From a virus (taxonomy: Duplodnaviria; Heunggongvirae; Uroviricota; Caudoviricetes): a stretch of DNA of 64,000 bases. Numbering within the stretch: position 1 is the stretch's first letter; the number at the start of each line of letters is the position of its first letter. The translations under genes were made by a program, and so were the position numbers. The stretch lies in IMG/VR virus record IMGVR_UViG_3300028887_000082; one strand, given 5' to 3'. Below are positions 13 through 36,752 of the stretch, piece after piece. Under the pieces are notes generated by a model. It was not told where the DNA came from and made no database searches. It worked only from the letters and a program-made list of their open reading frames with translations.

Positions 13-94
13 GGGAGTGTCGCATAGTGGCAATTGCAAGGGTCTGTAACACCCTCGCCTTCGGGCTTCGGAGGTTCGAGTCCTCCCGCTCCCA
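13..94 (+). tRNA. tRNA-Tyr (anticodon GTA), type II
   Basis: Acceptor GGGAGTG/CGCTCCC (one G-U); anticodon stem AGGGT/ACCCT with loop CTGTAAC; long variable arm; T-arm GGAGG-TTCGAGT-CCTCC; discriminator A. Confidence 0.75.
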
Positions 95-110
95 CAAAAA
101 CTTTAAGGTT

Positions 111-443
111 ATGAAAAAGACAGTTAAGTTTTTCAAACAGGATGACAAATGGTATGCAGACATTCCAAACCACACACTGGATGAAAATGAGATGGTGATG
201 GGTTCTGATATTATGTTGGAGATGTTTGCGAACGGTGCGAAGGAACTCACATTAACATTGTCTGATGATGATATGTCTGATGCATTCATAACATTGAGAA
301 GAAAGGAACATGATGAGGATGGTGCCTGGTACACAGTGTTCGGGACAGACTTTGAGGATGTTTGGATATGTAATGTGACACATGATGTCTTCGGTGAACA
401 CCCTGAATGTATCTACATCAGTAAGATAACTCAACATAAATAA
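111..443 (+). CDS. hypothetical protein (110 aa) embedded in tRNA array
   Basis: ORF 27..443 trimmed to the first ATG (MKKTVKFF...), because its upstream part overlaps tRNA-Tyr. Confidence 0.45.
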   Translation: MKKTVKFFKQDDKWYADIPNHTLDENEMVMGSDIMLEMFANGAKELTLTLSDDDMSDAFITLRRKEHDEDGAWYTVFGTDFEDVWICNVTHDVFGEHPECIYISKITQHK

Positions 444-530
444 GGGGATGTGCTGAAACTGGCAGCCAGGCCAGACTTAGGATCTGGTGTCCGGAAGGAC
501 GTATGGGTTCGAGTCCCTTCATCCCTACCA
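444..530 (+). tRNA. tRNA-Leu (anticodon TAG), type II, CCA encoded
   Basis: Acceptor GGGGATG/CATCCCT; anticodon stem CCAGA/TCTGG with loop CTTAGGA; long variable arm; T-arm TGGGTTCGAGTCCC; ends ACCA. Confidence 0.75.
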
Positions 531-607
531 CAGTCTTTCGGGACTTTAAAGAGTTGTAGAAATACAATCCATCGAGGTCAGTCCAGAACCAGTTAATCTG
601 GACATTT

Positions 608-680
608 GCGGCAGTGGCGGAATGGTAGACGCGCCACTTTGAGGGGGTGGTCCGGGCAACCGGGTATGGGTTCGAGTCCC
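608..680 (+). tRNA. tRNA-Leu (anticodon GAG; Ser/TGA reading not excluded), type II
   Basis: Acceptor GCGGCAG/CTGCCGC perfect 7 bp; Leu-type D-loop AATGGTAGA; anticodon stem CCACT/GGTGG with loop TTGAGGG; long variable arm TCCGGGCAACCGGGT; T-arm ATGGG-TTCGAGT-CCCAT. Confidence 0.65.
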
Positions 681-791
681 ATCTGCCGCACAATAAAAAG
701 GGTGGGCCAATCGGAATAAGGCAGGGTAAGTCTCCGGTTCTTCTTTGATGAGGGTGCACCAGTAATCAAAGTTTCTTAAATTACCCAACCC

Positions 792-865
792 GGGCAAGTA
801 ACTCAGTTGGTTAGAGTACCACTCTGATACAGTGGTGGTCGTAGGTTCGAGTCCTACCTTGCCCA
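792..865 (+). tRNA. tRNA-Ile (anticodon GAT)
   Basis: Acceptor GGGCAAG/CTTGCCC perfect; D-arm ACTCAGTTGGTTAGAGT; anticodon stem CCACT/AGTGG with loop CTGATAC; T-arm GTAGG-TTCGAGT-CCTAC. Confidence 0.85.
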
Positions 866-873
866 CAACAAAT

Positions 874-948
874 GCCCCTATCATACTAATAGGTTTAGGT
901 GGCCACCCTCTCAAGGTGGAGATACGGGTTCGAATCCCGTTGGGGGTA
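874..948 (+). tRNA. tRNA-like, possibly tRNA-Glu (anticodon CTC); weak D-arm, possible pseudogene
   Basis: Acceptor GCCCCTA/TGGGGGT pairs only with two G-U pairs; anticodon stem CCACC/GGTGG with loop CTCTCAA; canonical T-arm ACGGG-TTCGAAT-CCCGT; no convincing D-stem. Confidence 0.45.
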
Positions 949-967
949 CAAAAAATATTCAAAAATA

Positions 968-999
968 TTTGGTAGTTTCAAATTTTTTTGTTATCTTTG
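968..999 (+). promoter_or_regulatory. Bacteroidota-type promoter (-33 TTTGG, 20 nt, -7 TATCTTTG)
   Basis: AATATTTGGTAGT ... TATCTTTG; same architecture recurs before many genes in this window. Confidence 0.5.
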
Positions 1000-1169
1000 T
1001 ACTGTAAGTTCATTGAAATATTGATGCACATATAGGAACAACAAGATGGGGTACCTATAAGTCTCACATAAGGATTCTAGATTGAGGGGGTGTGAGAGAA
1101 GGGTACAAATAATGTTAAAGAGGATTCCCGACCCTTAATAGGAGGAGAAAAGCGCTCTCTCCGATCCTC

Positions 1170-1204
1170 TGACAACAGTGACTACGGAAATCTGTTGTGT
1201 TCTT
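1170..1204 (+). ncRNA. hairpin with conserved loop TGACTACGGAAAT (stem ACAACAG/CTGTTGT)
   Basis: 7-bp stem around a 13-nt loop, 4 nt upstream of tRNA-Leu(CAA); the same loop recurs at 1426-1448 with a different stem. Confidence 0.45.
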
Positions 1205-1207
1205 TAT

Positions 1208-1280
1208 GCCCAGGTGGGGGAATGGTAGACCCAGCTGTCTCAAAAGCAGCCGACCATCCGGTCATGTGAGTTCGAGTCTC
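1208..1280 (+). tRNA. tRNA-Leu (anticodon CAA), type II
   Basis: Acceptor GCCCAGG/CCTGGGC perfect; D-loop AATGGTAGA; anticodon stem GCTGT/GCAGC with loop CTCAAAA; long variable arm; T-arm GTGAG-TTCGAGT-CTCAC. Confidence 0.85.
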
Positions 1281-1425
1281 ACCCTGGGCACTTTGATGAA
1301 AATCCTAGGTGGGTGGTATCTATAGCAGACTCCTTTAAAATGGGGAAGGAGGAAAGATACCGAATACTGGACAGGTGGTTTCGTCTAGCATCCTGGTGAG
1401 GGGGAATGTCCTCACAAGACCACTT

Positions 1426-1462
1426 GAGAATGGTGACTACGGAATTCCATTTGTTTTCATTT
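1426..1462 (+). ncRNA. hairpin with conserved loop TGACTACGGAATT (stem AATGG/CCATT) plus T-rich tail
   Basis: Second copy of the TGACTACGGAA loop with a compensatory stem; followed by TTGTTTTCATTTTTTAT, so terminator-like. Confidence 0.4.
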
Positions 1463-1837
1463 TTTATGGTGGGGTTATCAAACTTAACCACCCGCATCCT
1501 TGAAGAGAATGTGTTGCCGAGCCGTGTCAAGTTTATCTTGTATCCGGAGGAGTGAAACTTCCAAGTTGACAGGTTATTGCACTCGCCTGTCAATTATTAC
1601 TGAACCCACCAGTAAGACTGTTAAGCAGTATATCAGTATGGTACATGGGAGTTGTGCATGAGCTGGCTGAAGAGTAGTTTCCGGATATGGTGTTGAAACC
1701 CGGGGAAAATGAAAAGTAAGTCAATAGCAATAGGGAACCGGTGGAGTTACTGTGACTTTGTAATTTTGTCCATTACAGAACCGGGGAAATAATGGAACAC
1801 CAATGTGGCTAAAATGGTAGGGATTCACAAAAATCAG

Positions 1838-1898
1838 TGAAGGTGGCCACACACCTGGACAATCACTGATTACGAAAATTATTTTTTATAAATATATA
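1838..1898 (+). terminator. stem-loop (ATCAGTGA...TCACTGAT) followed by T-rich run, upstream of tRNA-Glu
   Basis: 8-bp stem with a structured 21-nt loop, then TACGAAAATTATTTTTTAT. Confidence 0.4.
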
Positions 1899-1904
1899 AC
1901 AGTT

Positions 1905-1976
1905 GGCGCCCTCGTCTATCGGTTAGGACACGAGATTTTCATTCTCGGAAGAGGGGTTCGATTCCCCTGGGCGCTA
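1905..1976 (+). tRNA. tRNA-Glu (anticodon TTC)
   Basis: Acceptor GGCGCCC/GGGCGCT (G-U at 1:72); D-stem GTCT/GGAC; anticodon stem CGAGA/TCTCG with loop TTTTCAT; T-arm AGGGG-TTCGATT-CCCCT. Confidence 0.8.
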
Positions 1977-2037
1977 CTAATCAACCGGAAGGTTGTTTAC
2001 TATCCAGTCAATAATTCATGAATAAACCTGGGTAGAG

Positions 2038-2111
2038 GTCTGATAGCTCAGATGGTGAGAGTACCACACTGATACTGTGGAGGTCACAAGTTCAAGTCTT
2101 GTTCAGACTAC
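2038..2111 (+). tRNA. tRNA-Ile (anticodon GAT), second copy with imperfect acceptor stem (possible pseudogene)
   Basis: D-arm TAGCTCAGATGGTGAGAGT; anticodon stem CCACA/TGTGG with loop CTGATAC; T-arm ACAAG-TTCAAGT-CTTGT; acceptor GTCCTGA/TCAGACT has two mismatches. Confidence 0.5.
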
Positions 2112-2225
2112 GAAACATATCGCGGGGGAGTGAAACGGATAAGAACATCCCACAAGTTTGTTCAAAGATCATTACAGGCTCATAACCTGTAGATACTGGC
2201 TTCGACTGCCAGACCCGCAACAAAG

Positions 2226-2379
2226 ACCTTTATGAAGCAAGTGGAATTCGGTATTTCAACCTATGCAAGTTATCAGAGTCAGTGTACAATGAATCTGAAG
2301 AACAGTATAAAAGTCAATACTGATAAGTCTTCTGTGGAAATTCAAGCCCAGTTGTCCTGGTTCGAGCCCAGGTAAAGGT
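2226..2379 (+). ncRNA. elongated tRNA-like gene (154 nt) with ~75-nt internal insertion
   Basis: Perfect 7-bp acceptor ACCTTTA...TAAAGGT flanks a canonical T-arm CCTGG-TTCGAGC-CCAGG; TG follows the 5' acceptor strand as in neighbouring tRNAs; internal part not foldable by eye. Confidence 0.4.
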
Positions 2380-2555
2380 CCATATACAACAAAAAACAAC
2401 AAACATGGCAACAGTTAAAAACACATCATTCTCAAGAAGAGAAGTCAAGCATAAGAAACGCCCTGGAATCATTTCCAAGTGTAAGTCTTCAAAGAACAAG
2501 ACATCAAAACACTATGTGAAACCATACAGAGGTCAGGGCAGACCATAAAAACCTT

Positions 2556-2637
2556 CGGGGTGTAACCGGTAGTTGGTTTCCGACCAGTTTTGGGAACTGG
2601 GCCGCAAGGCGCGCAGGTTCGAGTCCTGTTACCCCGA
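2556..2637 (+). tRNA. tRNA-like, probable tRNA-Pro (anticodon TGG) with unusually long variable arm
   Basis: Acceptor CGGGGTG/TACCCCG; anticodon stem CCAGT/ACTGG with loop TTTGGGA (G37); 12-nt variable hairpin GCCGCAAGGCGC; T-arm GCAGG-TTCGAGT-CCTGT; D-stem only 3 bp. Confidence 0.5.
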
Positions 2638-2640
2638 CAA

Positions 2641-2822
2641 CACCTGGTGGACAAATGGTAAAGTCGCCCTATTGGGTAGGGAGGTGTGTAATAGAAGTTT
2701 TCCGGCAGTGAGGAGTAATGGAGTCGCGATCCACCGAAGGCACGGGAACGAGAATAAGCACAGGCCTGGATGTATTCGCGATGCTGAAGGGTGAATGGGG
2801 GTTCAATTCCCCTTCGAGGTGA
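2641..2822 (+). ncRNA. elongated tRNA-like gene (182 nt) with ~110-nt insertion after the anticodon region
   Basis: 5' part CACCTGG-TG-GAC-AATGGTAAA-GTC with stem-loop CCCT-ATTGGGT-AGGG (TGG anticodon-like); 3' part GGGGG-TTCAATT-CCCCT then CGAGGTG, which pairs 6/7 with the 5' acceptor; insert contains two copies of TCGCGAT. Confidence 0.4.
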
Positions 2823-3129
2823 CAAAGATTGTTGTGGTGTTGCAGAACTTTAAAAGGAACAACACAGGTGTAGAGGGAAACTTTAATGGGTAATTTTTTT
2901 TACCAGCTAACCTTCAGAGACCTCACCAAGGATGATGCTTCATCATGGAGGGCACTCCAAGATGACAAAAAGATAGTTACAGTGAGAGTCTTATTGAGAA
3001 CTGTTCGACCCAGGAGGAGTGATGTTTTAGAGCATGTTTGACTGTACGGGGATAAACGGTGGCGACCGGTGAGTTTTTCTGGGCACTTCTCAGAACAAAA
3101 ACAAAGAAAATTAACAAAACAGTCTTTAA

Positions 3130-3204
3130 GGGTGTTTAGCGCAGCTGGTTCAGAGCATCTCGTTTACACCGAGAAGGTCGGGGGTTCGAATCCCTCATCA
3201 CCCA
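3130..3204 (+). tRNA. tRNA-Val (anticodon TAC)
   Basis: Acceptor GGGTGTT/ATCACCC (one mismatch); D-arm TAGCGCAGCTGGTTCAGAGC; anticodon stem TCTCG/CGAGA with loop TTTACAC; T-arm GGGGG-TTCGAAT-CCCTC. Confidence 0.75.
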
Positions 3205-3342
3205 CAAAGAGATACTTGAAGAAGCTACGGGTGTAAGATACTAGTAAAGATTACACATAGGGGCCTACCATATTGTAGTTTATGTGTTCTAAAACATCAA
3301 GTAACAACATAGAGGACTTCGAATTAATCTATGGCTCTTAAT

Positions 3343-3414
3343 GCCGATGTAGCTCAGTGGCAGAGCAGGGGTTTTGTAAACCTCAGGTCGAGATCTCGGT
3401 ATTCTCCATCGGCT
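3343..3414 (+). tRNA. tRNA-Thr (anticodon TGT) with non-canonical T-loop
   Basis: Acceptor GCCGATG/CATCGGC perfect; D-arm TAGCTCAGTGGCAGAGC; anticodon stem GGGGT/ACCTC with loop TTTGTAA; T-arm GAGAT-CTCGGTA-TTCTC (4 bp, unusual loop). Confidence 0.65.
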
Positions 3415-3472
3415 CAAAATTATTGAACTTGAACTTTCATAAATACTTTATAAGGATTATAAAAGTTCAACT

Positions 3473-4066
3473 ATGACAAACTGGGAAGATAGAAAAGATA
3501 CCCTGGTAGATTTGATACAGGTTCAGAAATTACCATATGAACAGATTGGTAGAATGTTCAATTGTTCAGGTAATAACATCAAGAAAGTTGCAAAAAAACT
3601 TGGTATTGAATTAGTCCAGAAAAGAAAGATAAATGAAAGTGAAACTTTCAATAAAGGAAAAGGTAATAAGGGTATCTGTTTAAACTGTGGATGTGAATAT
3701 AACATTTACAGGTCTTCAAAAGGAAAGTTCTGCTCAAACAAATGTCAGGGAGAGTATGAATATAAAGAGTTCATTGAAAAATGGAAAAAGGGTGAAGAAT
3801 CTGGATTGACAGGAGAATATGGAATTTCTCGTCACATAAGGAGATACCTTTTTAATAAGTACAAATGTAGTTGTCAAATTTGTGGATGGAGTGAAGTAAA
3901 TCCATTTACTGGTAATGTTCCTTTGGAAATTCATCATATAGATGGCAATTACGTAAATAATAAAGAGGAAAATTTACAACTCCTTTGTCCAAATCATCAC
4001 TCACTGACTGAAACCTTTAAGAACCATAATAAAAATGGTAGAAAAGGTAGAAGGAAGTACAATTGA
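3473..4066 (+). CDS. HNH homing-type endonuclease (free-standing, inside tRNA array)
   Basis: C-terminal HNH motif ...EIHHIDGNYVNNKEENLQLLCPNHH; Cys-rich Zn-binding stretches CLNCGCEY...CSNKCQ and CQICGW; N-terminal HTH-like segment. Confidence 0.85.
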   Translation: MTNWEDRKDTLVDLIQVQKLPYEQIGRMFNCSGNNIKKVAKKLGIELVQKRKINESETFNKGKGNKGICLNCGCEYNIYRSSKGKFCSNKCQGEYEYKEFIEKWKKGEESGLTGEYGISRHIRRYLFNKYKCSCQICGWSEVNPFTGNVPLEIHHIDGNYVNNKEENLQLLCPNHHSLTETFKNHNKNGRKGRRKYN

Positions 4067-4072
4067 TAATTT

Positions 4073-4227
4073 GCCCCAGTGGCTCAATGGTAGAGCAACG
4101 CACTTGTATAGATGGCGAAATTCCATTTTAAAAACTATGACTACATCAAAAGGCTCATAGGAGTGAGGGTTCGATTCCCTTATGTAGTCCAATGCGTAGG
4201 TTGCTGGTTCGATTCCGGCCTGGGGCT
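4073..4227 (+). tRNA. interrupted tRNA gene: 5' half + ~90-nt insertion in anticodon loop + 3' half; insertion contains a nested T-arm/acceptor minihelix
   Basis: Outer acceptor GCCCCAG...CTGGGGC perfect 7 bp; D-arm TGGCTCAATGGTAGAGC; anticodon stem ACGCA (4098-4102) pairs with TGCGT (4193-4197); T-arm GCTGG-TTCGATT-CCGGC; insert 4103-4192 begins CTTGTAT (TGT-like); nested ACTACAT...GAGGG-TTCGATT-CCCTT-ATGTAGT-CCA at 4140-4191. Confidence 0.6.
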
Positions 4228-4285
4228 CAAGAAAAAGGATTTTGGCCTGTTAGTTAAAATCCATATAAAATAAAAAGTCAAATTT

Positions 4286-4906
4286 ATGTCAAAATTAATG
4301 AAACCAGAAGAGAGGGATCAGCAGATCAAGGATTTGATGATTACCATTAGAAGGAACACACAGGGTTCCAAATGTATTGAGATCTTTGAAAATCTTTTGA
4401 ATGAGGTTGAGGACAAAGAGTTTGTTGATACTGTTATAGCAGACACTCACAAATTCATCTCTGAGTTCTCAAGACTATGTAAGGATGTGGACAATATGAA
4501 GAATCTGGATTATATCTCCAGAATCCTCACACATGAGTTCATACTTCCCCACAAGTATTTCCGTAAGTCACAGAATATGGCGAAGGTATACTTGCTGATG
4601 TATGACAGACTTGTGAAGATATATTCACATCCTGTATATGATGTTGAGAAAGGTATCATCCTTTCCAATGTCAACTTCCTGGGTACAATTCACCACAAGG
4701 AAGACCTCACTGCAAATGATGTGATTGCAGTGTTCAAGTATTTCGGTGACCTTTCAGGACTTTCCGTTGACCAGGTAAAGGAAAAGAAGGAAGAAGCCAG
4801 GATGGTCATCTTACTCTACAATTATCTGCCTGCCATAGTGAAGGCACTTATTCAGACCAAGAGGAGAAGCTTGAATCTTGACAAGAACTCCAAGAAGTTT
4901 GAATAA
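4286..4906 (+). CDS. hypothetical protein (206 aa)
   Basis: Long + strand ORF between the tRNA block and tRNA-Ala. Confidence 0.6.
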   Translation: MSKLMKPEERDQQIKDLMITIRRNTQGSKCIEIFENLLNEVEDKEFVDTVIADTHKFISEFSRLCKDVDNMKNLDYISRILTHEFILPHKYFRKSQNMAKVYLLMYDRLVKIYSHPVYDVEKGIILSNVNFLGTIHHKEDLTANDVIAVFKYFGDLSGLSVDQVKEKKEEARMVILLYNYLPAIVKALIQTKRRSLNLDKNSKKFE

Positions 4907-4934
4907 ATAACAGAACTAACAGGCTGGAATCTTT

Positions 4935-5001
4935 GGGGGATTAGCTCAGCTGACTAGAGCACCTGATTTGCACTCAGGAGGTCATGGGTTTGAATCCCAT
5001 A
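4935..5001 (+). tRNA. tRNA-Ala (anticodon TGC), CCA encoded
   Basis: Acceptor GGGGGAT/ATCCTCC (G-U at 4:69); D-arm TAGCTCAGCTGACTAGAGC; anticodon stem CCTGA/TCAGG with loop TTTGCAC; T-arm ATGGG-TTTGAAT-CCCAT; ends ACCA. Confidence 0.8.
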
Positions 5002-5043
5002 TCCTCCACCAAAAAAGGACAATTATTTGCTGGGATACTGTGA

Positions 5044-6132
5044 GTGTCCCTTTTTTATTCAATGAAAAGAATATTTATATTCATTGTATTTTTATTCCTT
5101 GGTATGACATCACTGCAATCGCAGAATGTCGTATCATCTACTGTTGAGTTTTTATTCAACACAGATGAGTTTGTACAGAATGAGAAATATGACAATTTCA
5201 TAAACACAATTGTACCTTATATCAACAGCAACAAGGATAATATTGAGAGTATCCTGTTGGTGGGATCTGCATCCCCAGAAGGAAACAAGGAATGGAATGA
5301 CTACCTTGCTGTCACCAGGGCCGAAAAGGTACACTCATATTTTATGGACAGTATTCCAAGACAGAAGGTCAATGTCATCAATGACTATGACCTATTCCTG
5401 GAAAAGACAGGTTATGATGAGAAGAACTGGAAAAGGTTGAGGGCAACTTATATTGAAATCCAACTCAAAAAAGCACCTGAAACCATAACCCTGTTTGACA
5501 CCATATATATAAAGGAGATGGATACAATCTACCAGTGCTGTGGCACTGATACTGTATATATCAAACAGGAACCGGAAAGGATACCTCTTCTTGCAGTAAA
5601 GACAAATCTCCTTTCTGATGTTCTCATCACCCCCAGTATTCAAGCTGAACTCTACACACATCTCTGGGGACTCTCACTTGAATTTGACTACACATTCCCC
5701 TGGTATCACAATGATGATGTATATTGGTATTACCAGATCCTCAATGGTACTGTTGGAATAAGGAAGTACTTGAACAATGAGTACTATGGTCATTACTTTG
5801 GAATATATGGAAACACTTTCACATATGACATCTGTTTTGATGCAGATAATGGATACCAGGGTGAGGGTAATGGAATCAGTATAGGTTATGGATATGTGTT
5901 CAGGAGTAAGAAACATCCCAAACTGAAGTTTGAACCTTATGTCAGGTTGGGTTATCTGTATTCAAGATTTGACACATATCATGCCTCTAATCCCTGGGAT
6001 GGAAAGTATTACTACAACTGGCATAAGAAGGCCAGTGAATTTACTCCCAGGAGACTTGAACTTAATTATTTCGGACCTACTGCAATAGGTTTCAATATAA
6101 CATACGACTTGATATGGTTAAGAAAGTATTAG
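5044..6132 (+). CDS. secreted outer-membrane beta-barrel-like protein (DUF3575-like, OmpA-like segment)
   Basis: Signal peptide MKRIFIFIVFLFLGMTSLQSQ; segment AVKTNLLSDVLITPSIQAE resembles the DUF3575 core found beside Bacteroidales fimbrillin genes; GSASPEGNKEWNDYLAVTRAEKV is OmpA-C-like; aromatic C-terminus. Confidence 0.5.
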   Translation: MSLFYSMKRIFIFIVFLFLGMTSLQSQNVVSSTVEFLFNTDEFVQNEKYDNFINTIVPYINSNKDNIESILLVGSASPEGNKEWNDYLAVTRAEKVHSYFMDSIPRQKVNVINDYDLFLEKTGYDEKNWKRLRATYIEIQLKKAPETITLFDTIYIKEMDTIYQCCGTDTVYIKQEPERIPLLAVKTNLLSDVLITPSIQAELYTHLWGLSLEFDYTFPWYHNDDVYWYYQILNGTVGIRKYLNNEYYGHYFGIYGNTFTYDICFDADNGYQGEGNGISIGYGYVFRSKKHPKLKFEPYVRLGYLYSRFDTYHASNPWDGKYYYNWHKKASEFTPRRLELNYFGPTAIGFNITYDLIWLRKY

Positions 6133-7178
6133 TTTTTATTGTTTCACTGTTGTTAGTTTTTTCTGCTTGTGATAAGAAACCTCTATATCTTCAGGGTGAT
6201 GCAGCAGTCACCGTTAATGTACAGACTCAGGTATCAATAGAAGCATATTGGAATACAAACATTCAAAGTACATTAAGATATGACTGGGACACCACTTTGT
6301 ATGGACCAATAGGTTATTCAAAGGTGGATAATGTTGACCTTGTGATATTCAACAACAAAAAGATAATAGAAAGGAAGACATTAAACACAGGAAAACGTCA
6401 ACTGATAGATATTGAATTAGGTAATACATATGACTTTTTGATTTTCAATAAAACAGAAAACACCGAGGATTTTTATATAGACAACAAGTTTTTAATAAGT
6501 ACAACCACTCCTGGTACAAAGTCTGTTGTTGAAGATGTATATTATGATTTGACAAACCAACCTGGTGAGATATTTTGTGTTTATCAAAAGAATGTATTTT
6601 TGTCAGATGATTTGTCTCAATATAAAGAGGTATATGATCATGACAAGTTAATATATGTGTATGACATCAATACTGAATTAAAACCGGTATCATACATCTA
6701 CCTTATACAGTTTATTATTGTAAAGGATGACAGTTTGGATATTGATGTGAAAGGTATTCCGGAATACAGAATAACCGGTGTGAGTTCCTCAAAGAATCTT
6801 TTCACCAACACTCCTGTATATACCGGAAAGAAAGAAATCAGGTCAACTGACATCAAACCCCCACAGGTGGTAGAGGATAGTTTGATTTTTGCGTCAAAAT
6901 TCACTATATTGAACTTGGGTAGTGATGATGAACAAAGTTCATGGGAGACTCCTGATAATTATATATACAACTGTTTGATAAATATTGAGACTGAGAAATC
7001 AGGAAGTTTTAATGGAATTGTCAATATTACAGACCAACTTAAAAAACAACCACAAGGAGGAATAATAACAATAAGGATTAACAGTTCAACATTGAGAAGG
7101 AAGGATCAGGACAGTGGTGGAATTAATGTTGATGTTGAACCCTGGCAAGAGGAAGAGGTTCAAGAAATAGAAATATAA
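6114..7178 (+). CDS. lipoprotein (354 aa), pilus-accessory-like
   Basis: Lipobox MVKKVLVFIVSLLLVFSAC-DKK; beta-rich N/T/D-rich composition; sits between the DUF3575-like and fimbrillin-like genes. Confidence 0.55.
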   Translation: MVKKVLVFIVSLLLVFSACDKKPLYLQGDAAVTVNVQTQVSIEAYWNTNIQSTLRYDWDTTLYGPIGYSKVDNVDLVIFNNKKIIERKTLNTGKRQLIDIELGNTYDFLIFNKTENTEDFYIDNKFLISTTTPGTKSVVEDVYYDLTNQPGEIFCVYQKNVFLSDDLSQYKEVYDHDKLIYVYDINTELKPVSYIYLIQFIIVKDDSLDIDVKGIPEYRITGVSSSKNLFTNTPVYTGKKEIRSTDIKPPQVVEDSLIFASKFTILNLGSDDEQSSWETPDNYIYNCLINIETEKSGSFNGIVNITDQLKKQPQGGIITIRINSSTLRRKDQDSGGINVDVEPWQEEEVQEIEI

Positions 7179-7220
7179 TACATAAATAATACATAAATAA
7201 TAATAAAAAACTTAATTGAA

Positions 7221-8405
7221 ATGAAAAAGATTTTATTCACATTATTAACCATATTAATGGTAATCGTATCATGTGCAAAAATAGATATTGTACCTGATAC
7301 ATATAATTCTCGTAATGAGAATGTGGAGATTGTTTTCGGTGCCCATGCAGGCAAGGGTTTGATGACAAGAGCAGTCATTAATGGTGATACTTTACCAGAT
7401 GGATCAGAGTTTGGTGTTTATTCATACTATGCAGCAGGAACCAATCATTTGTTGATTGACAATGGTCACTATGCAGTAAACAAGGATACAGCCAGGGCTA
7501 CTGGTGGTGAAAAGTATTATTGGCCAAAGTCAGATAACAATAATGTCACAAAGGATAGTATTGACTTCTTGGCAATTTATCCATATAGTACAACTGATTA
7601 TTCTCGTTCAGGAAACACTGTTACTATTACACTTAATGCATCAACAACAGATAGTACTTCTACAAAGGATGTTCTTTATGCAATAGCTGATAATCAGTAT
7701 CATCAGACAGTTGGAACTTATAACAATACTACACCAAATAAGTATTATGTTCCATTGACATTTAAGCATGCATTGACATTGGTTGAGTTCCAGGGTAAAC
7801 ATGCTGGAGCAACAAATAACATTGATACTATAACTGTTACAGAGATTGCTTTCTTGAATAGTGATGGTACTGCATATGCTATTTACACTGGTGGTTCAAT
7901 ATCATTTGATATATCTAAAATAACTGCAACCACAAAACCTGATACAACTTTTACAGGTGGTACAACAAACAATACTTTAAACTTTGCTAATAATTGTGGT
8001 CTTACATCATCAAAATACACAACAATATCAAAGGCAATAATGGTTCCTCAGGCTGTACCTAATAAGGTTCGCATAACTTATAATATAACCATTAAGAATA
8101 CTAATGGTGAAAAAGTGGAGTTCACTGGTCGTCAGGTAGTAAAAGAAATTAATACCGGTAGTGATATGACAAATAATACTCCTAGAAATTATGTATCTAA
8201 CTGGTATTCTGGTAAGCATTATGTTTACAGGTATTATATAACTGCTGAAGCTATTGAGTTTACTGTAACAGTTGATGACTGGGATCTTCCTGATGGTTGG
8301 CAGATTTGGGATCATGATGTAGCATCATATGTTGACCGTTTTTTCGAGAAGGCTTCAACAATCATGGGGAACTGTATAGAGGTGCAGAACCACATAATGG
8401 CGTAA
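7221..8405 (+). CDS. fimbrillin-like (type V pilus Mfa/FimA-like) lipoprotein; reading continues in -1 frame to 8980 across a T6 tract
   Basis: Lipobox MKKILFTLLTILMVIVSC-AK; candidate Arg maturation site LMTR|A near residue 50; T/S/N-rich beta-rich body; the -1 frame is open from 8336 to 8980 with no start codon before 8669. Confidence 0.5.
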   Translation: MKKILFTLLTILMVIVSCAKIDIVPDTYNSRNENVEIVFGAHAGKGLMTRAVINGDTLPDGSEFGVYSYYAAGTNHLLIDNGHYAVNKDTARATGGEKYYWPKSDNNNVTKDSIDFLAIYPYSTTDYSRSGNTVTITLNASTTDSTSTKDVLYAIADNQYHQTVGTYNNTTPNKYYVPLTFKHALTLVEFQGKHAGATNNIDTITVTEIAFLNSDGTAYAIYTGGSISFDISKITATTKPDTTFTGGTTNNTLNFANNCGLTSSKYTTISKAIMVPQAVPNKVRITYNITIKNTNGEKVEFTGRQVVKEINTGSDMTNNTPRNYVSNWYSGKHYVYRYYITAEAIEFTVTVDDWDLPDGWQIWDHDVASYVDRFFEKASTIMGNCIEVQNHIMA

Positions 8406-8668
8406 AATTTTCAAATAGCGTAAAGGGCCTTGATTTTAGTAGAGGAGATTACATTGAAGCCAAAATAGATTTACGCAATTTAAATAGAGCAAAGCAGAAC
8501 ATCATCTCTATTGGAGAAGATATAGCCAACTGGACCCCAAGTGGTAGTGGAGAAAAATATAATCTTCATATTTATTATCCCAATGATGTTAACGATTTAC
8601 GAATAAGATTTTCTGCATTAAGCAGTAATAGAATTAAGATTGGTAATACCACTTATAATCGTAGAACA

Positions 8669-8980
8669 ATGGGAATTGTTGATTCAGATATATTTTATTT
8701 TGATGAGGATACTAATTATGAAGTTACTATAAAATTTGACAAAGATGGATTTTATGTCAATGACCACTTGATAACCAGAGATGATTTTGAATCTGTTGAA
8801 CCAAGTAAAATACCTGAGTGGCCAACAAATCCAAGTGGTACTGGAACAGATGTTTGGACATATCCAGATTATTTCATGTTACATTTCCAAAATAAAGTAA
8901 GTGTTAGTTTTGGAAGCATGGAAGGTAGTACACGAAGTTACGCTTATTATGAATACATAAAATATCATCATGTACTATAA
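8669..8980 (+). CDS. C-terminal segment of the frameshifted fimbrillin-like gene (listed as separate 103-aa ORF)
   Basis: In-frame, stop-free extension from 8336 upstream of this ATG; probably not independently translated. Confidence 0.35.
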   Translation: MGIVDSDIFYFDEDTNYEVTIKFDKDGFYVNDHLITRDDFESVEPSKIPEWPTNPSGTGTDVWTYPDYFMLHFQNKVSVSFGSMEGSTRSYAYYEYIKYHHVL

Positions 8981-8981
8981 A

Positions 8982-9008
8982 AGAGAGGATAAAACATCCT
9001 CTCTTTTG
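8982..9008 (+). terminator. rho-independent terminator (AGAGAGGAT-AAAAC-ATCCTCTCT-TTTG)
   Basis: Perfect 9-bp stem with T-run directly after the stop at 8980. Confidence 0.7.
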
Positions 9009-9031
9009 TACATAAATATTTTATAAAAACT

Positions 9032-9268
9032 TTGTTATATTTAATATACAAAATAAGTTATATGAGTATGAATGATTTGAAATACTTTGGTAAGGTGGTT
9101 GCCTTGTTTCTTGCAGGATTCATTGCCATCATCACAGCATCAGGTGTTTGGAATGGTGTAGCAGAAGGATGTGTTGATTCCTTCTATGGTTGGGTTGCTG
9201 GTATCAACTTCATCATCCAGGGATTTGGTATCTATTCACTTTATAAGAAATTATTCCCAAAAGAATAA
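9032..9268 (+). CDS. small membrane protein (78 aa)
   Basis: Two predicted TM helices (VVALFLAGFIAIITASGVW; AGINFIIQGFGIYSLY). Confidence 0.45.
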   Translation: MLYLIYKISYMSMNDLKYFGKVVALFLAGFIAIITASGVWNGVAEGCVDSFYGWVAGINFIIQGFGIYSLYKKLFPKE

Positions 9269-9465
9269 TACAATATGCTCTCTGGTGAGTTTATGGGTGT
9301 CTTGATTAACTTCATATATGACCCATAAATAAAAGTGGTATAAGTGCAGTATATTCCAGGAGTACATACTGCAACGGTTCATAGTTCAGCCGGGAAACGT
9401 ACGAAACTATGCGTGGGATCCATAACAGACGGAGAAGCATACGGTCACTTGAAAGTCTGTTTTTC

Positions 9466-9553
9466 GGAGGGTTGCCTGAGTGGACGAAAGGGGCTGCCTG
9501 CTAAGCAGTTGAACCCTTTATGGGTTCCAGAGGTTCGAATCCTCTACCCTCCG
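9466..9553 (+). tRNA. tRNA-Ser (anticodon GCT), type II
   Basis: Acceptor GGAGGGT/ACCCTCC perfect; Ser-type D-arm CCTGAGTGGACGAAAGG; anticodon stem GCTGC/GCAGT with loop CTGCTAA; long variable arm; T-arm AGAGG-TTCGAAT-CCTCT; ORF 9344..9649 over it is spurious. Confidence 0.85.
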
Positions 9554-9671
9554 CACATAAATACTATGAATATACAATGTTTTTGGTCCAGAGGATTCCG
9601 GAACCTTTTGAGTGTTAATAAAAGACACGAATGGATTAGAGACAGTTAAATACAAAATAATTTAATAAAGT

Positions 9672-32350: not shown

Positions 32351-32593
32351 ATGATGTACATACTTGCAGGAAGAAGTTATCAATTATATGGCATCTTCTC
32401 CACAAAGGAGAAACTCAATGAGGCCATCGCAGTCGTAAGGAAACATGACCCTTACACACATCTCTATTGGCAGGAGGTAGAGGTTGACAACTTTGACACA
32501 ACCATTGCCTCATTCTTTACAATGCATCCGGAAAAACTTATAGAAATAGAAAAAGACACAGATTATGAAATTTCTGATACAGACAGTAAATAA
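32351..32593 (+). CDS. hypothetical small protein (80 aa)
   Basis: + strand ORF. Confidence 0.4.
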   Translation: MMYILAGRSYQLYGIFSTKEKLNEAIAVVRKHDPYTHLYWQEVEVDNFDTTIASFFTMHPEKLIEIEKDTDYEISDTDSK

Positions 32594-33290
32594 ACAGATT
32601 ACATATGACTTCATTTTTGAGTTGACCATATGTAAGGAATACTTTGATTGGATTGGAAGGGATTTCAAACTCAAGAAACATGAAGGTCTGAACTTTGATG
32701 ATATAAAGAACCCGGACCAGTATGTCCCTGTTGGTTCTGTTGAGTTTGTATCAGAGTATTTGAGGAAGTTTTACCCCCAGGCAGAGAAAGCACTCATACC
32801 TATCAATGTTCCAGAACAGTTGTTCCCATTTGCCGGCAGAACCATTGCCAACATAACCAAACCGGAGGATATGAATGGGTTTGATTGTCTTGTGTACAGA
32901 AAGTCTTTGGATACAATAAAGGATCCCAACAATGGATGGTGGGGATTTCCTGAATATGAATGGTGTAAGGGTTACCAGGTTTCCACTCCAATTGATAACA
33001 TTATTTCTGAATGGAGAGTATTTGTATTCAATGATGTAATTGTGGATGCAAAAAACTACAGGGGTGACTTTTTCGTATGTCCGGATGAAGAAACAGTTTC
33101 CAATATGGTGAAAGCATATAAGAATTCACCCAGAGCATATACGCTTGATGTAGCAGTCACAAGTGAAGGTAAAACTGTAGTGATTGAGTGTCACCGGTTC
33201 TTTTCATGTGGTCTGTATGGATTTTGTGAGCATGATAAATATCCTGTAATGCTTTCACAGGAATGGTTTGAAATGAAAAATATGAGATAA
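32565..33290 (+). CDS. ATP-grasp fold enzyme (amidoligase-like)
   Basis: EWRVFVFNDVIVDAKNY and LDVAVTSEGKTVVIECHRF resemble ATP-grasp motifs (ExxRxF; DxxxxxxGxxxVIExN). Confidence 0.45.
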   Translation: MKFLIQTVNKQITYDFIFELTICKEYFDWIGRDFKLKKHEGLNFDDIKNPDQYVPVGSVEFVSEYLRKFYPQAEKALIPINVPEQLFPFAGRTIANITKPEDMNGFDCLVYRKSLDTIKDPNNGWWGFPEYEWCKGYQVSTPIDNIISEWRVFVFNDVIVDAKNYRGDFFVCPDEETVSNMVKAYKNSPRAYTLDVAVTSEGKTVVIECHRFFSCGLYGFCEHDKYPVMLSQEWFEMKNMR

Positions 33291-33292
33291 TT

Positions 33293-33595
33293 ATGAACAC
33301 TAAAAAAAGAAATGTATTCTTTGATTTGTTTTACAAGAAATACAAATCCATTGATAAAATGAACTACATCAAAAATGTTATGGACTCTTGTGAGACAAAA
33401 GTACAATTGGATTCAGCGTATTCATGGGGAATTGAAATCATTTGGAAAACATGTAGTGCAATGAGAGAAATACTTGATAATGAATATGGTAGTATCTTTG
33501 CATTTCCTATTGAAGATAAAATAATGGATATGTGTAAAGAAATATCAGATGAAATTACCAATCATTATAATAACATACTAAAAAGAAAGATATAA
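33293..33595 (+). CDS. hypothetical protein (100 aa)
   Basis: + strand ORF. Confidence 0.4.
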   Translation: MNTKKRNVFFDLFYKKYKSIDKMNYIKNVMDSCETKVQLDSAYSWGIEIIWKTCSAMREILDNEYGSIFAFPIEDKIMDMCKEISDEITNHYNNILKRKI

Positions 33596-33604
33596 AAGAA
33601 TGAT

Positions 33605-33901
33605 ATGATAGGTATTTTTATTTTCCCGGCAAAACCAAACAAGGATTACCTGTTCTACAAAGAACCCAGAAAAGTTCTTGAAATGAGTGATGATGAAATC
33701 ATATCATCAAAAAATTCATCAAGGGGTATTTTCTATAACATACATTATGACAATGAATGGGAAGGACTCAGTGATGCAGAAATTGTTGATAAGTGGAATG
33801 AAAAAGCGATAAACCTCCAAATTCAGATTGGTAACAGAAAATCCGGACTTGGTTATACATCAGTAGATAAGACTAAATTTATTAGAATAATAAGGAAATG
33901 A
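33605..33901 (+). CDS. hypothetical protein (98 aa)
   Basis: + strand ORF. Confidence 0.4.
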   Translation: MIGIFIFPAKPNKDYLFYKEPRKVLEMSDDEIISSKNSSRGIFYNIHYDNEWEGLSDAEIVDKWNEKAINLQIQIGNRKSGLGYTSVDKTKFIRIIRK

Positions 33902-34575
33902 AACACTATGACAGTATTCCCAGACTCCAGGATGATGGAACACTGAAAGGAGAGATGGTCGCCGGGTACAACAAACTTGACGGTCAGAACTTCTGTGTCA
34001 CATATAATTGTAGAAAGAAAACCTGGGGACCTTATGGATCCAGGACTGTCACTGTTGATGAGAACTCTGAACAGTTTGGGGACACGGTTAGATTCTTCAA
34101 CAACTCCGGTTACAAGGAGATACTTGGAAATATCATCAAGGAGTATTCAGGTAAGGGAGATGTGTTCAATGGTGTTGAAGAAGTCACATTCTTCTTTGAG
34201 TGGTATGGGTGGAACTCATTCGCTGGCAAACACAAGGAAGGTGACAAGATGCACCTGGCACTCATTGATGTGTTCCTGAAGAAGAGAGGTTATATGGAAC
34301 CCAAATCATATGAGATGTGTTTCAGAAATTGCGGAATTGAACTTCCTGATCTCATATATTCCGGACCACTCAATGCAGACATTATAGAAAAGGTTCAGAA
34401 CAATGACTGGACAGACCCGGATTGTTGGAATTCCAAAGTACATGAGGGTGTTGTCTTCAAAAGAACAACACTCCTGAAAGGACAGAGGAGACCATCAGTC
34501 AAGGTGAAGACCAAATGGTGGTTGGACACTCTCCACTCACTTTATACAGAAGAGGAATGTAAGAAACTTGAGTGA
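33898..34575 (+). CDS. ATP-dependent RNA ligase-like nucleotidyltransferase (Rnl family)
   Basis: Motif I AGYNKLDGQN (KxDG, lysine adenylylation site); motif IV EGVVFK; motif V KVKTK; ~225 aa. Confidence 0.6.
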   Translation: MKHYDSIPRLQDDGTLKGEMVAGYNKLDGQNFCVTYNCRKKTWGPYGSRTVTVDENSEQFGDTVRFFNNSGYKEILGNIIKEYSGKGDVFNGVEEVTFFFEWYGWNSFAGKHKEGDKMHLALIDVFLKKRGYMEPKSYEMCFRNCGIELPDLIYSGPLNADIIEKVQNNDWTDPDCWNSKVHEGVVFKRTTLLKGQRRPSVKVKTKWWLDTLHSLYTEEECKKLE

Positions 34576-35428
34576 TATGGAAGGATACAGTATAAATCCA
34601 TTAGACTATCTTAACCAGGCACTTAATTATGCACATCGTTGGAAACTTGATGTCAATCTTGAAAATCCGACCACAATACAGGACAAACTGTTCTGGTTGA
34701 ATTTCTATGACCAGGACATCAGAAAGTCCAGATGTGCAGATAAACTGTTAGTCAGGGAGTATGCAAAAGAAAAACTTGGTTTTGACATCAACATACCAAT
34801 ATTAAAGGTGTATGACAGTGTTGATGACATAAACCTGGATGAACTCCCAGATAAGTTTGTCATAAAGTGTAATCATGGAAGTTCAATGAACATTGTTGTC
34901 AAAGACAAGAGTTCATTTGACTTTGAAAAAGCAAAGGACAAACTCAGGAAATGGATGAGTATTGATTATGCACTATATAATCATTATGAGTTCCATTACC
35001 ATGACATACAACACAAGATTCTGATTGAGGAATACAAGGAAGATCTCAAGACCAATGAACTCAGGGATTACAAGTTCAGCTGTTTCAATGGTGTTCCCAA
35101 AGTTATGTGTGCAATCACAAACCTGTTCAAACACAATGAGACAACCAACTATTATGATATGGATTTCAATCCATTGACTGATATGTCCCTGATATATCAT
35201 CCTGCAAACTACAATGTCCAGATTGATAAACCCAAAGGGTTTGAAAAGATGATAGAGTATGCCACAAAACTCTCCCAGGACTTTAAGTATGTCAGGGTAG
35301 ATTTCTTCAGTATCAATGGTGATGTGTATCTGAGTGAGATGACATTCACACCACATGCCATAATCTGGTTGAGATTCAATAACCCCAAATATGACCTTGA
35401 ACTGGGTAATATGCTTAATATAAAGTAA
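34568..35428 (+). CDS. ATP-grasp enzyme (TupA-like)
   Basis: KFVIKCNHGSS...; ILIEEYKED; YVRVDFFSINGDVYLSEMTFTP. Confidence 0.5.
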   Translation: MSDMEGYSINPLDYLNQALNYAHRWKLDVNLENPTTIQDKLFWLNFYDQDIRKSRCADKLLVREYAKEKLGFDINIPILKVYDSVDDINLDELPDKFVIKCNHGSSMNIVVKDKSSFDFEKAKDKLRKWMSIDYALYNHYEFHYHDIQHKILIEEYKEDLKTNELRDYKFSCFNGVPKVMCAITNLFKHNETTNYYDMDFNPLTDMSLIYHPANYNVQIDKPKGFEKMIEYATKLSQDFKYVRVDFFSINGDVYLSEMTFTPHAIIWLRFNNPKYDLELGNMLNIK

Positions 35429-35429
35429 T

Positions 35430-35672
35430 ATGAATACAAGTTTCATTTATAAGGTGATATCTGAATCAGAAAGGTGGCAGGTAAGACGCAAGAGAAAGAT
35501 CGAGAGGATGAAATTTCTGATGAAAGTTCTTGAAGACAGAAACCTTAACCTCCCTGAAAGATTTTATGGTATGCTGGCAAGGTGGGAGTCAGAATATAGA
35601 AGAGAATGTGAGGAATATCAGCAACTACTTAACATAACCAAGAATGAAAAGAAAGAAGAAAGAATACAGTAA
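35430..35672 (+). CDS. hypothetical protein (80 aa)
   Basis: + strand ORF. Confidence 0.4.
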   Translation: MNTSFIYKVISESERWQVRRKRKIERMKFLMKVLEDRNLNLPERFYGMLARWESEYRRECEEYQQLLNITKNEKKEERIQ

Positions 35673-35913
35673 CATCTGTGATATGAATGGGGAACTCATC
35701 CCATATGGTGTCCCTATTGACTTCACATGGTGGGCATACTATGGGACAGAAGTTGAACTCCACCTGGTTGCGAAGATACGAAAGCGAAAATCCGGTGACA
35801 TCTTTGAGTTCATAAAGGATGAACATGGAAGAGATTGTTTCTTCACTCACAGACTGACATCACTCAATTGGGAACCGGCAGATTTGGAAATATTAAATGA
35901 AAATGAGTTATGA
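35644..35913 (+). CDS. hypothetical protein (89 aa)
   Basis: + strand ORF. Confidence 0.4.
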   Translation: MKRKKKEYSNICDMNGELIPYGVPIDFTWWAYYGTEVELHLVAKIRKRKSGDIFEFIKDEHGRDCFFTHRLTSLNWEPADLEILNENEL

Positions 35914-36185
35914 ACAACATCTTTAATTATATCTTTAATTTTGGACCGGTAATTGTCTCCCTCATCCTCCTTATCTGGATGAGATGTTGTTGTGTATTCA
36001 CAGAGAACATCAAGTTCCCGACAAGAGGACATATTGTACTGATTACACTGTTGTCAGCAATCCCCATTATAGGAATTATAACAGTGGCGGGTATGATTGC
36101 ATTCTATATTGGATTCAGAGTGACAGGTGATTTACGTCTTAAAAGTAATAGATTTACTAAATTTTGGTTTGACATAGATGAATGA
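35910..36185 (+). CDS. small membrane protein (91 aa)
   Basis: Two hydrophobic helices. Confidence 0.4.
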   Translation: MNNIFNYIFNFGPVIVSLILLIWMRCCCVFTENIKFPTRGHIVLITLLSAIPIIGIITVAGMIAFYIGFRVTGDLRLKSNRFTKFWFDIDE

Positions 36186-36705
36186 TTTTAAGAAAATAGT
36201 TTTCCTGGATATAGATGGTGTATTGGCATCCATCCAATTCTTGTGTGATCATCCCAAGTCATCAGGAATTGATCCGGAAAAGTGTAAACTCCTCAACACC
36301 CTTTCTGAAATAGGTGCTGAAATTGTCATATCCTCTTCCTGGGGACACGACAATGGCAGAACTGAAAAGACATTGAGACAATGTGGGTTGACCCTTCCAA
36401 TCATAGGTTACACCCAACATTTTTCCCAGGACTGGATATGTAGGGGTAATGAAATTGAGAAGTGGTTGACAGAGATGTATGGTGGTATGGGTACCAAGTT
36501 TGGTTACGATTGCGATACGGGTGAACCATACTACAGGGAACACTTTAGTGATAATGATGTTGATTATGAGTATGTTATCTTTGATGATGACACTGATTTC
36601 CTGCTTGGACAAAAAGACAACTTCATCAAAATAGATGAAAAGACAGGTCTGACAGAAGAGGACATCAACAAAGCAATTAAGATACTTACAAGAAGTGGCG
36701 AATAA
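36178..36705 (+). CDS. HAD-superfamily phosphatase (polynucleotide 3'-phosphatase-like)
   Basis: Motif I VFLDIDGVLAS (DxDGxL); motif II IVISSSW; lies 1.6 kb downstream of the RNA ligase. Confidence 0.55.
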   Translation: MNDFKKIVFLDIDGVLASIQFLCDHPKSSGIDPEKCKLLNTLSEIGAEIVISSSWGHDNGRTEKTLRQCGLTLPIIGYTQHFSQDWICRGNEIEKWLTEMYGGMGTKFGYDCDTGEPYYREHFSDNDVDYEYVIFDDDTDFLLGQKDNFIKIDEKTGLTEEDINKAIKILTRSGE

Positions 36706-36726
36706 ATTTCGCCATTTTTTTTTTGT
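36697..36726 (+). terminator. rho-independent terminator (GGCGAA-ATAAAT-TTCGCC-TTTTTTTTTT)
   Basis: Perfect 6-bp GC stem plus T10, overlapping the gene's stop. Confidence 0.75.
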
Positions 36727-36752
36727 TATTTCAAAAAAATATATTATCTTTG
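36722..36752 (+). promoter_or_regulatory. Bacteroidota-type promoter (TTTG, 19 nt, TATCTTTG)
   Basis: TTTTGTTATTTCAAAAAAATATATTATCTTTGTAATAG upstream of 36775. Confidence 0.55.

Follow-up and report, generated by a model that had tools for sequence, protein, structure and literature searches.

RNA repair in jumbo phages has been described as relying on Rnl-type ligases, standalone Swiss-army-knife (SAK) HAD phosphatases, RlaP, Thg1 and many tRNAs (Iyer et al. 2021, PMC7824862), and in Lak phages a tRNA-repair RNA ligase as well as a tRNA-His guanylyltransferase were already noted by Devoto et al. (bioRxiv 10.1101/356790). Large phages also sporadically encode ATP-grasp ligases of the R2K clade (PMC7824862), whose eukaryotic founder is Cdc123 (Burroughs et al. 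2015, PMC4431377). The target of Cdc123 is a translation GTPase, and for the clade a role in protein-directed peptide ligation, that is protein modification, in phage-host conflict has been predicted (PMC4431377; PMC7824862). Members of these families are brought together in a 64,000-nucleotide stretch of the Caudoviricetes record IMGVR_UViG_3300028887_000082, hereafter called the window, in which a predicted minimal ATP-dependent RNA ligase of 225 residues is flanked by an R2K enzyme and a second, TupA-like ATP-grasp enzyme and followed by a standalone HAD_SAK_2 phosphatase.

This arrangement is probably best explained as an RNA-repair pair, made up of the mini-ligase and an end-healing HAD and aided by nearby RlaP, Thg1-like and HD enzymes, which resides in a hypervariable accessory island and is co-transcribed with two unrelated cargo amidoligases that were inserted in one sub-clade. 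In such a scheme, a host nuclease would cut tRNA or other RNA, the capless HAD_SAK_2 protein would remove the terminal 3' (or 2') phosphate, and the RlaP and Thg1-like enzymes would restore lost nucleotides, before the ligase, self-adenylated on K26, would pass AMP to the 5'-phosphate end and seal the break. The R2K and TupA-like enzymes would be independent cargo, neither needed for nor dedicated to the ligase reaction. Nothing indicates that the four enzymes constitute a new pathway or a new class of system; the family of domain-less ligases is the only moderately new element here.

All four genes that a preliminary description of this DNA had placed at 32565-36705 were recovered there on the plus strand, among nine open reading frames (ORFs) that overlap or lie at most 9 nucleotides (nt) apart. 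The four enzymes yield strong family matches, each above the curated Pfam cut-off, and the five small ORFs between them encode 80-100 residues. A terminator-like hairpin overlaps the stop codon of the HAD gene and is the probable 3' end of the transcription unit; because of the tight packing and this one terminator-like site at the end, the four genes are probably co-transcribed, with HAD as the last one. Membership of a known defence system was rejected for the four enzymes; PADLOC gave no match for them, and NCBIfam offered no names except for a weak HAD-IIIA match.

The ligase carries motifs I (K26-L-D28-G29, within KLDGQN), III (E101), IV (E183-G184..K188, EGVVFK) and V (K202-x-K204, KVKTK), and a family alignment of 90 sequences shows K26, D28, G29, E101, E183, G184, K202 and K204 as invariant, with the residues of motifs III to V as a set invariant or almost so. 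These strings, as well as the DxDGxL of the HAD protein, had been pointed out before and indeed fall on family-invariant columns. An AlphaFold model built from 40 homologues (predicted local distance difference test score, pLDDT, 87.9; predicted template-modelling score, pTM, 0.86) was compared with the PDB by Foldseek, which ranked T4 Rnl2 first (E 3e-7), followed by NgrRnl, REL1 and T4 Rnl1, with DNA ligases appearing from E 5e-4. Overall, NgrRnl, REL1 and T4 Rnl2 are nearest in fold, then Rnl1 and Rnl3, then DNA ligases and finally capping enzymes, and a viral structure library agreed with this picture. Because structure comparison ranks RNA ligases first, an identity as DNA ligase or capping enzyme was rejected, and the earlier designation as RNA ligase-like is borne out by fold and motifs alike. 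Searches of PDB sequences with the single ligase sequence or a narrow profile gave chance matches only, and a broader profile produced a weak match to Rnl3-type ligases only (E 0.005-0.02) without reaching Rnl2.

Judged by its motifs and model, the 225-residue protein thus resembles ATP-dependent RNA ligases of the Rnl2/Rnl5 kind in its predicted fold and in the full set of catalytic motifs, but is made up of a nucleotidyltransferase domain alone, devoid of any appended domain. Its C-terminus lies about 20 residues past motif V, with merely two short helices at 206-224 in the model, which leaves no Rnl2-type C-terminal domain, and motif I begins at residue 26 with residues 1-10 disordered in the model, which leaves no N-terminal OB-like domain of the Rnl5 type. 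An exhaustive search uncovered 426 cluster representatives of this family, nearly all of 195-225 residues, and IMG/VR holds 232 relatives, many of them on contigs of 100-675 kilobases (kb). No biochemical study of the ~200-residue ligases was found in the literature. The ligase is present in 15 of 15 Lak genomes, at 59-60% protein identity, and also occurs in 13 further IMG/VR loci; it is the conserved anchor of the region in every Lak-like genome examined, while the surrounding gene content turns over fast. Directly 5' of it, a gene for a 98-residue protein may be translationally coupled to the ligase, since its stop codon overlaps the ligase start codon (ATGA). This protein occupies the same place in L004 (69% identity), L019-L021 and L037/L038, and lies 3.5 kb from the ligase in L007.

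The HAD protein matches Pfam HAD_SAK_2 (PF18143) with 70.8 bits at a cut-off of 27.5, and this family was defined, according to its Pfam entry, from RNA-repair fusion proteins, in agreement with the RNA-repair type assumed earlier. Its motif I reads D11-I-D13-GVL, and D11, D13, S53, R89, K95, D136, D137 and D140 are invariant in an alignment that includes the KVP40 homologue, so that the full set of HAD motifs (I-IV) is in place; 245 phage records contain a homologue. With about 40 residues between the catalytic motifs there appears to be no space for a large cap, as is typical of HADs acting on macromolecules, and we infer an enzyme that heals RNA ends by removing 3' or 2' phosphates.

The wider surroundings of the ligase are enriched in genes of RNA repair and translation maintenance, namely Tpt1/KptA, RlaP, Thg1, a second ligase, phosphoesterases and SmpB. 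In the window itself, RlaP, a Thg1-like enzyme and an HD-domain protein are encoded downstream of the ligase (Table 1), and in L019 and L038, too, RlaP lies 3' of this block. In the P0003 lineage (ligase 88% identical; L017, 1604-12678), the ligase is followed by a 50-residue ORF and, about 150 nt 3' of the ligase, by Tpt1/KptA, and its surroundings comprise Acb3 (an inhibitor of cyclic-oligonucleotide-based antiphage signalling, CBASS), NUDIX, a radical-SAM-like gene, SmpB and DUF2828/DUF7788; the genes around this near-identical ligase are wholly different from those in the window. A Pfam census of 142 ORFs near the ligase in ten diverged Lak-like loci retrieved Thg1, RlaP and a second RNA_ligase twice each and Tpt1, HAD_SAK_2 and R2K once each, besides enzymes of nicotinamide adenine dinucleotide (NAD) and nucleotide metabolism and IS200/IS605 elements. 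In 61 distant phage loci, counted without redundancy, the larger genes no more than two positions away from the mini-ligase were inspected as well, and among them a second RNA_ligase (6) and calcineurin-like phosphoesterases (5 + 3) were joined by EF-G, HisRS, Band_7 and R2K (2 each). The adjoining second RNA_ligase-family genes of the distant loci (L051-L123) include adjacent paralogues in L077 and L082, and this adjacency hints at two-ligase or heteromeric arrangements.

Conservation of the whole quartet is confined to a narrow range. The order GmrSD_N-x-R2K-x-98-residue protein-Rnl-TupA-x-x-x-HAD, with RlaP located 3', recurs in the P0004 lineage (L019-L022), whose ligase is 90% identical, and the same order from GmrSD_N to HAD is seen in the P0242 lineage (TupA 77% identical; L037/L038). 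In L007, whose ligase is 75% identical, R2K lies directly 5' of the ligase and HAD 1 kb 3' of it, without TupA. Neither R2K nor TupA nor HAD was detected at up to 10 kb from the ligase in the remaining 12 of the 13 IMG/VR loci (59-82% identical), within 8 kb in three Lak genomes (A1, B7, C1), or within 6 kb on either side in the P0003 lineage. Moreover, 80 distant mini-ligase loci contained, within 6 kb, HAD twice, R2K twice (L097/L098), TupA never and the full quartet never. Two genes beside ATP-grasp genes elsewhere, a 202-residue gene 3' of R2K in L030 and a 224-residue gene 5' of a distant phage TupA in L040, were rejected as divergent ligases (BLASTP E >=0.6 for each). The quartet does not recur in independent diverged lineages, the full set being restricted to the window's own sub-clade, and the linkage of the ATP-grasp enzymes to the ligase is shallow. 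The co-occurrence in related phages that the preliminary description had envisaged is therefore limited to close relatives for the full set and to one more lineage for R2K-Rnl-HAD. Nothing ties the ATP-grasp pair to the ligase pathway: a conserved linkage is largely missing, because the quartet is confined to a shallow sub-clade and the ATP-grasp enzymes are found elsewhere without a ligase, in the company of helicases, a conjugative element or polysaccharide loci.

Both ATP-grasp enzymes could be assigned to clades, R2K and TupA-like, and an identity as purine-biosynthesis enzymes was rejected. The R2K protein scores 71.6 bits against R2K_2 and 67.6 bits against R2K_3, the cut-off being about 26, and K113, K119 (spacing 6), R151, D195 and E208-C-H210 are invariant among 47-119 homologues, out of 1018 in the databases. 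Like the clade as described before, it occurs sporadically in large phages. It is a predicted protein or peptide amidoligase, and the substrate to which it joins an amino acid or a peptide is most likely a protein of the host or of the phage. Homologues of about 50% identity adjoin DEAD-box helicases and YopX in other phages, and no ligase was found near the R2K homologues gp412 of phage G or g97 of S-CRM01. A homologue of 51% identity (L126, 5001-5780) resides in an apparent conjugative element with genes for a TraG-type coupling protein of the type IV secretion system (T4SS), a resolvase, YAcAr and ArdC-type anti-restriction. Nine contexts, each examined individually, served to gauge the share of R2K loci with a ligase; when IMG/VR was scanned for patterns of the R2K protein or alignment, nothing or the L007 contig only was returned. 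The text of PMC4431377 contains no occurrence of 'RNA ligase', and an adjacency of R2K to RNA ligases is not reported there.

The TupA-like protein matches positions 2-240 of the 241 positions of the PF14305 profile with 166.5 bits (cut-off 25), and K97, E151, D164, K166, R240, D242, E254 and T256 are invariant. Translation most likely starts at ATG 34577, which yields 283 residues, and less likely at TTG 34568, because the 100%-identical protein P0241 and all close homologues measure 283 residues. Phage homologues are scarce, being present in four GenBank records only, and those of 46-50% identity in other huge phages lie beside glycosyltransferase genes. Relatives of 36-47% identity were found at at least 583 loci of bacterial genomes, where their neighbours include GT2 (10), Polysacc_synt (10), GT1 (6), Wzy_C (5) and UDP-glucose dehydrogenase (4) as well as EpsG and PGA_cap. 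These polysaccharide-locus neighbours therefore mark the TupA-like family as one of surface-glycopolymer amidoligases with no RNA link. The enzyme is most likely an amino-acid ligase for sugar acids or glycopolymers, which amidates a surface glycopolymer containing uronic acid or its precursor. No paper joining TupA, ATP-grasp and phage was found in the literature searched.

Table 1. Features of the locus and of the RNA-repair context in the window (aa, amino acid residues)
Feature	Position	Strand	Family match or remark
tRNA array, 12-13 genes	13..9554	+	ARAGORN (12), Rfam
Standalone GmrSD_N (DUF262) protein, 201 aa	31359..31964	+	Pfam GmrSD_N 2.8e-15; PADLOC NsnA 1.7e-10
R2K-clade ATP-grasp ligase, 241 aa	32565..33290	+	Pfam R2K_2 8.5e-20, R2K_3 2e-18
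Hypothetical protein, 100 aa	33293..33595	+	no significant family match
Hypothetical protein, 98 aa	33605..33901	+	no family match; stop overlaps ligase start
Predicted minimal ATP-dependent RNA ligase, 225 aa	33898..34575	+	Pfam RNA_ligase PF09414 1e-9; PHROG 548 'RNA ligase' 6.9e-15
TupA-like ATP-grasp amidoligase, 283 aa	34577..35428	+	Pfam ATPgrasp_TupA 9.4e-49
Small ORF, 80 aa	35430-35672	+	no significant family match
Small ORF, 89 aa	35644-35913	+	no significant family match
Small ORF, 91 aa, hydrophobic	35910-36185	+	no significant family match
Standalone HAD_SAK_2 phosphatase, 175 aa	36178..36705	+	Pfam HAD_SAK_2 1.9e-19; PHROG 1818 3.4e-28
Terminator-like hairpin (13 pairs), then T-run	36690..36730	+	overlaps HAD stop codon
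RlaP (RNA-ligase-associated Pol-beta nucleotidyltransferase), 439 aa	44286..45605	+	Pfam RlaP 5e-19; 9.7 kb 3' of ligase
Thg1-like 3'-5' nucleotidyltransferase, 281 aa	46584..47429	+	Pfam Thg1 2.9e-26
HD-domain phosphohydrolase, 239 aa	47817..48536	+	Pfam HD 1e-9

The window comes from a phage related to the Lak Prevotella megaphages, and the locus forms one co-directional stretch of the accessory genes of this phage. A DNA-level match to known phages is given by the ligase alone, with about 67% to 15 of these megaphages. TAG ends only two of the 72 ORFs with 100 or more residues and none of the 18 genes at 30.7-38.8 kb, a scarcity that fits the recoding of TAG as glutamine (code 15) in Lak phages (bioRxiv 10.1101/356790); a suppressor tRNA with the anticodon CTA was not found in the window. 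The sole large plus-strand ORF ending in TAG, at 5062-6132, encodes an OmpA/DUF3575-like outer-membrane protein and overlaps the next ORF by 19 nt, so that its TAG may be read through under code 15. Within the tRNA array, Rfam adds a tRNA at 3343-3414 and omits a tRNA-Pro at 2556-2638, which with 83 nt is unusually long for tRNA-Pro. The GmrSD_N protein contains nothing but the N-terminal domain (DUF262) known from GmrSD-type restriction enzymes, and its gene is the upstream member of the block that is syntenic with close relatives, lying 5' of R2K in L037 and L007. The small proteins are in part shared as well: the 100-residue one has a homologue of 33% identity in L007 and a 103-residue gene at the equivalent position in L037, the 89-residue one shares 75% identity with its counterpart in L007 and 55% with that in L009, and equivalent small genes fill the interval between TupA and HAD in L019 and L037. 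Further downstream, the window encodes an SPFH/Band-7 protein (55468-56685), a class proposed in the literature as RNA-repair scaffold. Genes for a PnuC-type transporter of nicotinamide mononucleotide (NMN; 28222-28776) and an NMNAT-like cytidylyltransferase (54312-54794) suggest NAD salvage by the phage.

Several observations weigh against an RNA-repair pair with independent cargo. Tight packing and probable co-transcription are compatible with a joint function of the four genes, and R2K and HAD_SAK_2 genes lie no more than about 2 kb apart in at least four Lak-like sub-lineages, even without an intervening ligase (L030 and L125, with R2K homologues 60-63% identical and about 1-2 kb from HAD_SAK_2). 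An R2K gene is also found 1-2 kb 3' of a mini-ligase of 29% identity in L097 (6001-8536, on a 482-kb contig) and L098 (4466-7227), possibly a second, independent case of R2K-ligase proximity. Furthermore, no glycosyltransferase or polysaccharide gene appeared in Pfam scans of about 57 window ORFs, including those beside the TupA-like gene. In favour of the quartet as one functional module, in which R2K and/or the TupA-like enzyme would attach an amino acid or a peptide to part of the translation apparatus, such as tRNA or an elongation factor, or to the ligase while ligase and HAD would mend RNA in the same counter-defence pathway, stand the packing with a single terminator after HAD, the R2K-HAD linkage, the proximity of R2K to the ligase in L007 and L097/L098, the retention of the quartet while R2K and TupA diverged to about 75% identity, and the translation GTPase target of Cdc123 along with the predicted conflict role of its clade. 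Such a module is nonetheless unlikely, as most lineages, the one with an 88%-identical ligase among them, lack the partners near the ligase, most R2K contexts are devoid of a ligase, and TupA-like relatives sit inside polysaccharide loci; moreover, the linked cases are explicable by shared ancestry, because all but L097/L098 are relatives of one phage group. That ATP-grasp modification of tRNA, an elongation factor or the mini-ligase amounts to a new modification-dependent pathway of RNA repair or translation protection in megaphages is more doubtful still. A modification or a partner could matter because the mini-ligase is without an RNA-binding domain, and to our knowledge every characterised RNA ligase has one. 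The isolated N-terminal nucleotidyltransferase domain of T4 Rnl2, studied in the Shuman laboratory, is said to self-adenylate and to seal pre-adenylated nicks but to be incapable of completing nick sealing, which also counts against sealing by the mini-ligase and HAD as a pair. A weaker version of the coupled ATP-grasp pathway, and more likely than it, is that the ~200-residue nucleotidyltransferase-only proteins form a distinct RNA ligase family working with a separate partner protein, for which the 98-residue protein could be a candidate.

The HAD protein itself may be read otherwise, since the substrate of a standalone HAD_SAK_2 protein is a putative one. If the phosphatase acted on small molecules in the metabolism of nucleotides or NAD, the locus would contain no pair of Rnl and end-healing enzyme but four unrelated accessory genes. 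This alternative, to which we give a small share of credence, draws on the KVP40 homologue, whose gene adjoins that of NMN adenylyltransferase (natV), on the HAD genes of L030 and L125, which lie near NT5C and PARG-like genes without an adjacent ligase, on the PnuC and NMNAT-like proteins of the window and on the rarity of HAD in the distant ligase loci (2 of 80). It also profits from the outcome of single-sequence and narrow-profile searches against PDB sequences, which gave chance matches only and no solved relative, and of a single-sequence AlphaFold model whose pLDDT of 42.6 is too low for fold comparison. It is opposed by the foundation of the Pfam family on RNA-repair fusion proteins, by the size of the protein, whose 175 residues would leave no space for caps such as HADs acting on small molecules typically carry, and by the placement of the standalone form in jumbo-phage RNA repair by Iyer et al. 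(PMC7824862). In addition, other phosphoesterases take the ligase-adjacent position in distant lineages, which suggests that a phosphatase partner is wanted there. The repair pair, for its part, is burdened by the missing healing steps: no 5'-kinase or 2',3'-cyclic phosphodiesterase was identified beside the ligase, so that the healing pathway is incomplete as annotated, and the Pfam scans detected no Pnk-type 5'-kinase, though small or divergent kinases could escape them, and a weak P-loop kinase match at 53481-54008. The same gap affects the proposal that the ligase, together with HAD here and Tpt1/KptA in sister lineages, matures the phage's own tRNAs by joining the exon halves of intron-containing Lak tRNAs instead of mending defence damage. 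In fungi and plants Tpt1 catalyses the final step of tRNA splicing, and the Tpt1/KptA 2'-phosphotransferase gene 3' of the ligase in the P0003 lineage, the presence of the ligase in every Lak-like genome examined and the tRNA array of the window would suit this role. Introns have, moreover, been described in Lak tRNAs, located where eukaryote-type models predict them (bioRxiv 10.1101/356790). However, no splicing endonuclease was identified either, ARAGORN and Rfam detected no intron-containing tRNA in the window, the mini-ligase family occurs in many phages not known for tRNA introns, and the introns could self-splice, which renders this proposal very improbable.

With an RNA-repair pair and independent cargo as the preferred reading, the locus adds detail on how Lak-like gut megaphages sustain translation under host attack: a universally retained mini-ligase would reside in a fast-changing island that samples partners for healing or restoring ends, namely HAD, Tpt1, RlaP, Thg1 and calcineurin-type phosphoesterases. 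The ligase family, with hundreds of ~200-residue phage proteins that possess all ligase motifs but lack every accessory domain considered necessary for recognising a substrate, bears on the question of whether a bare nucleotidyltransferase domain seals RNA or needs a partner. R2K and TupA-like amidoligases are seen to circulate in gut megaphages, too.

Compared with the R2K.2 and R2K.3 families (PMC4431377), the window protein shares two lysines in or just after RAGNYA strand 2, the arginine, the aspartate and a terminal E-x-polar motif, although this last motif reads E-C-H in place of the E-x-N of the families. The TupA-like protein shares the full-length profile match and the invariant residues with the teichuronopeptide and surface-polysaccharide amidoligases of PF14305, but is phage-encoded and, unlike the bacterial loci, has no polysaccharide gene beside it. 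The mini-ligase has motifs I, III, IV and V and Pfam PF09414 in common with T4 Rnl2, REL1 and NgrRnl at only 13-19% identity, and differs from them by lacking the C-terminal domain of Rnl2/REL1 and the N-terminal domain of Rnl5 (DraRnl, NgrRnl) and by membership of its own large family of ~200-residue phage proteins. With T4 Pnkp and Rnl1, the comparison chosen in the preliminary description, the window shares the logic in which healing of the 3' end falls to a HAD-type phosphatase and sealing to an ATP-dependent ligase; this part of the parallel stands, whereas the ligase is nearest to Rnl2/Rnl5 and the HAD protein belongs to a different family, standing alone and unfused to a kinase, none of which was detected in the ORFs scanned. 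In contrast to the jumbo-phage repair sets (Iyer et al. 2021, PMC7824862, citing Burroughs and Aravind 2016), the components in the window are spread over about 14 kb and interleaved with unrelated genes, and neither a polynucleotide kinase nor a phosphoesterase of the 2H or cRec type was found in the vicinity of the ligase. Nevertheless, ligase, SAK-type HAD, RlaP, Thg1 and tRNAs are all present in the window as they are in those sets, the pairing of Rnl and SAK-HAD has already been described for large phages, and each component belongs to a known family.

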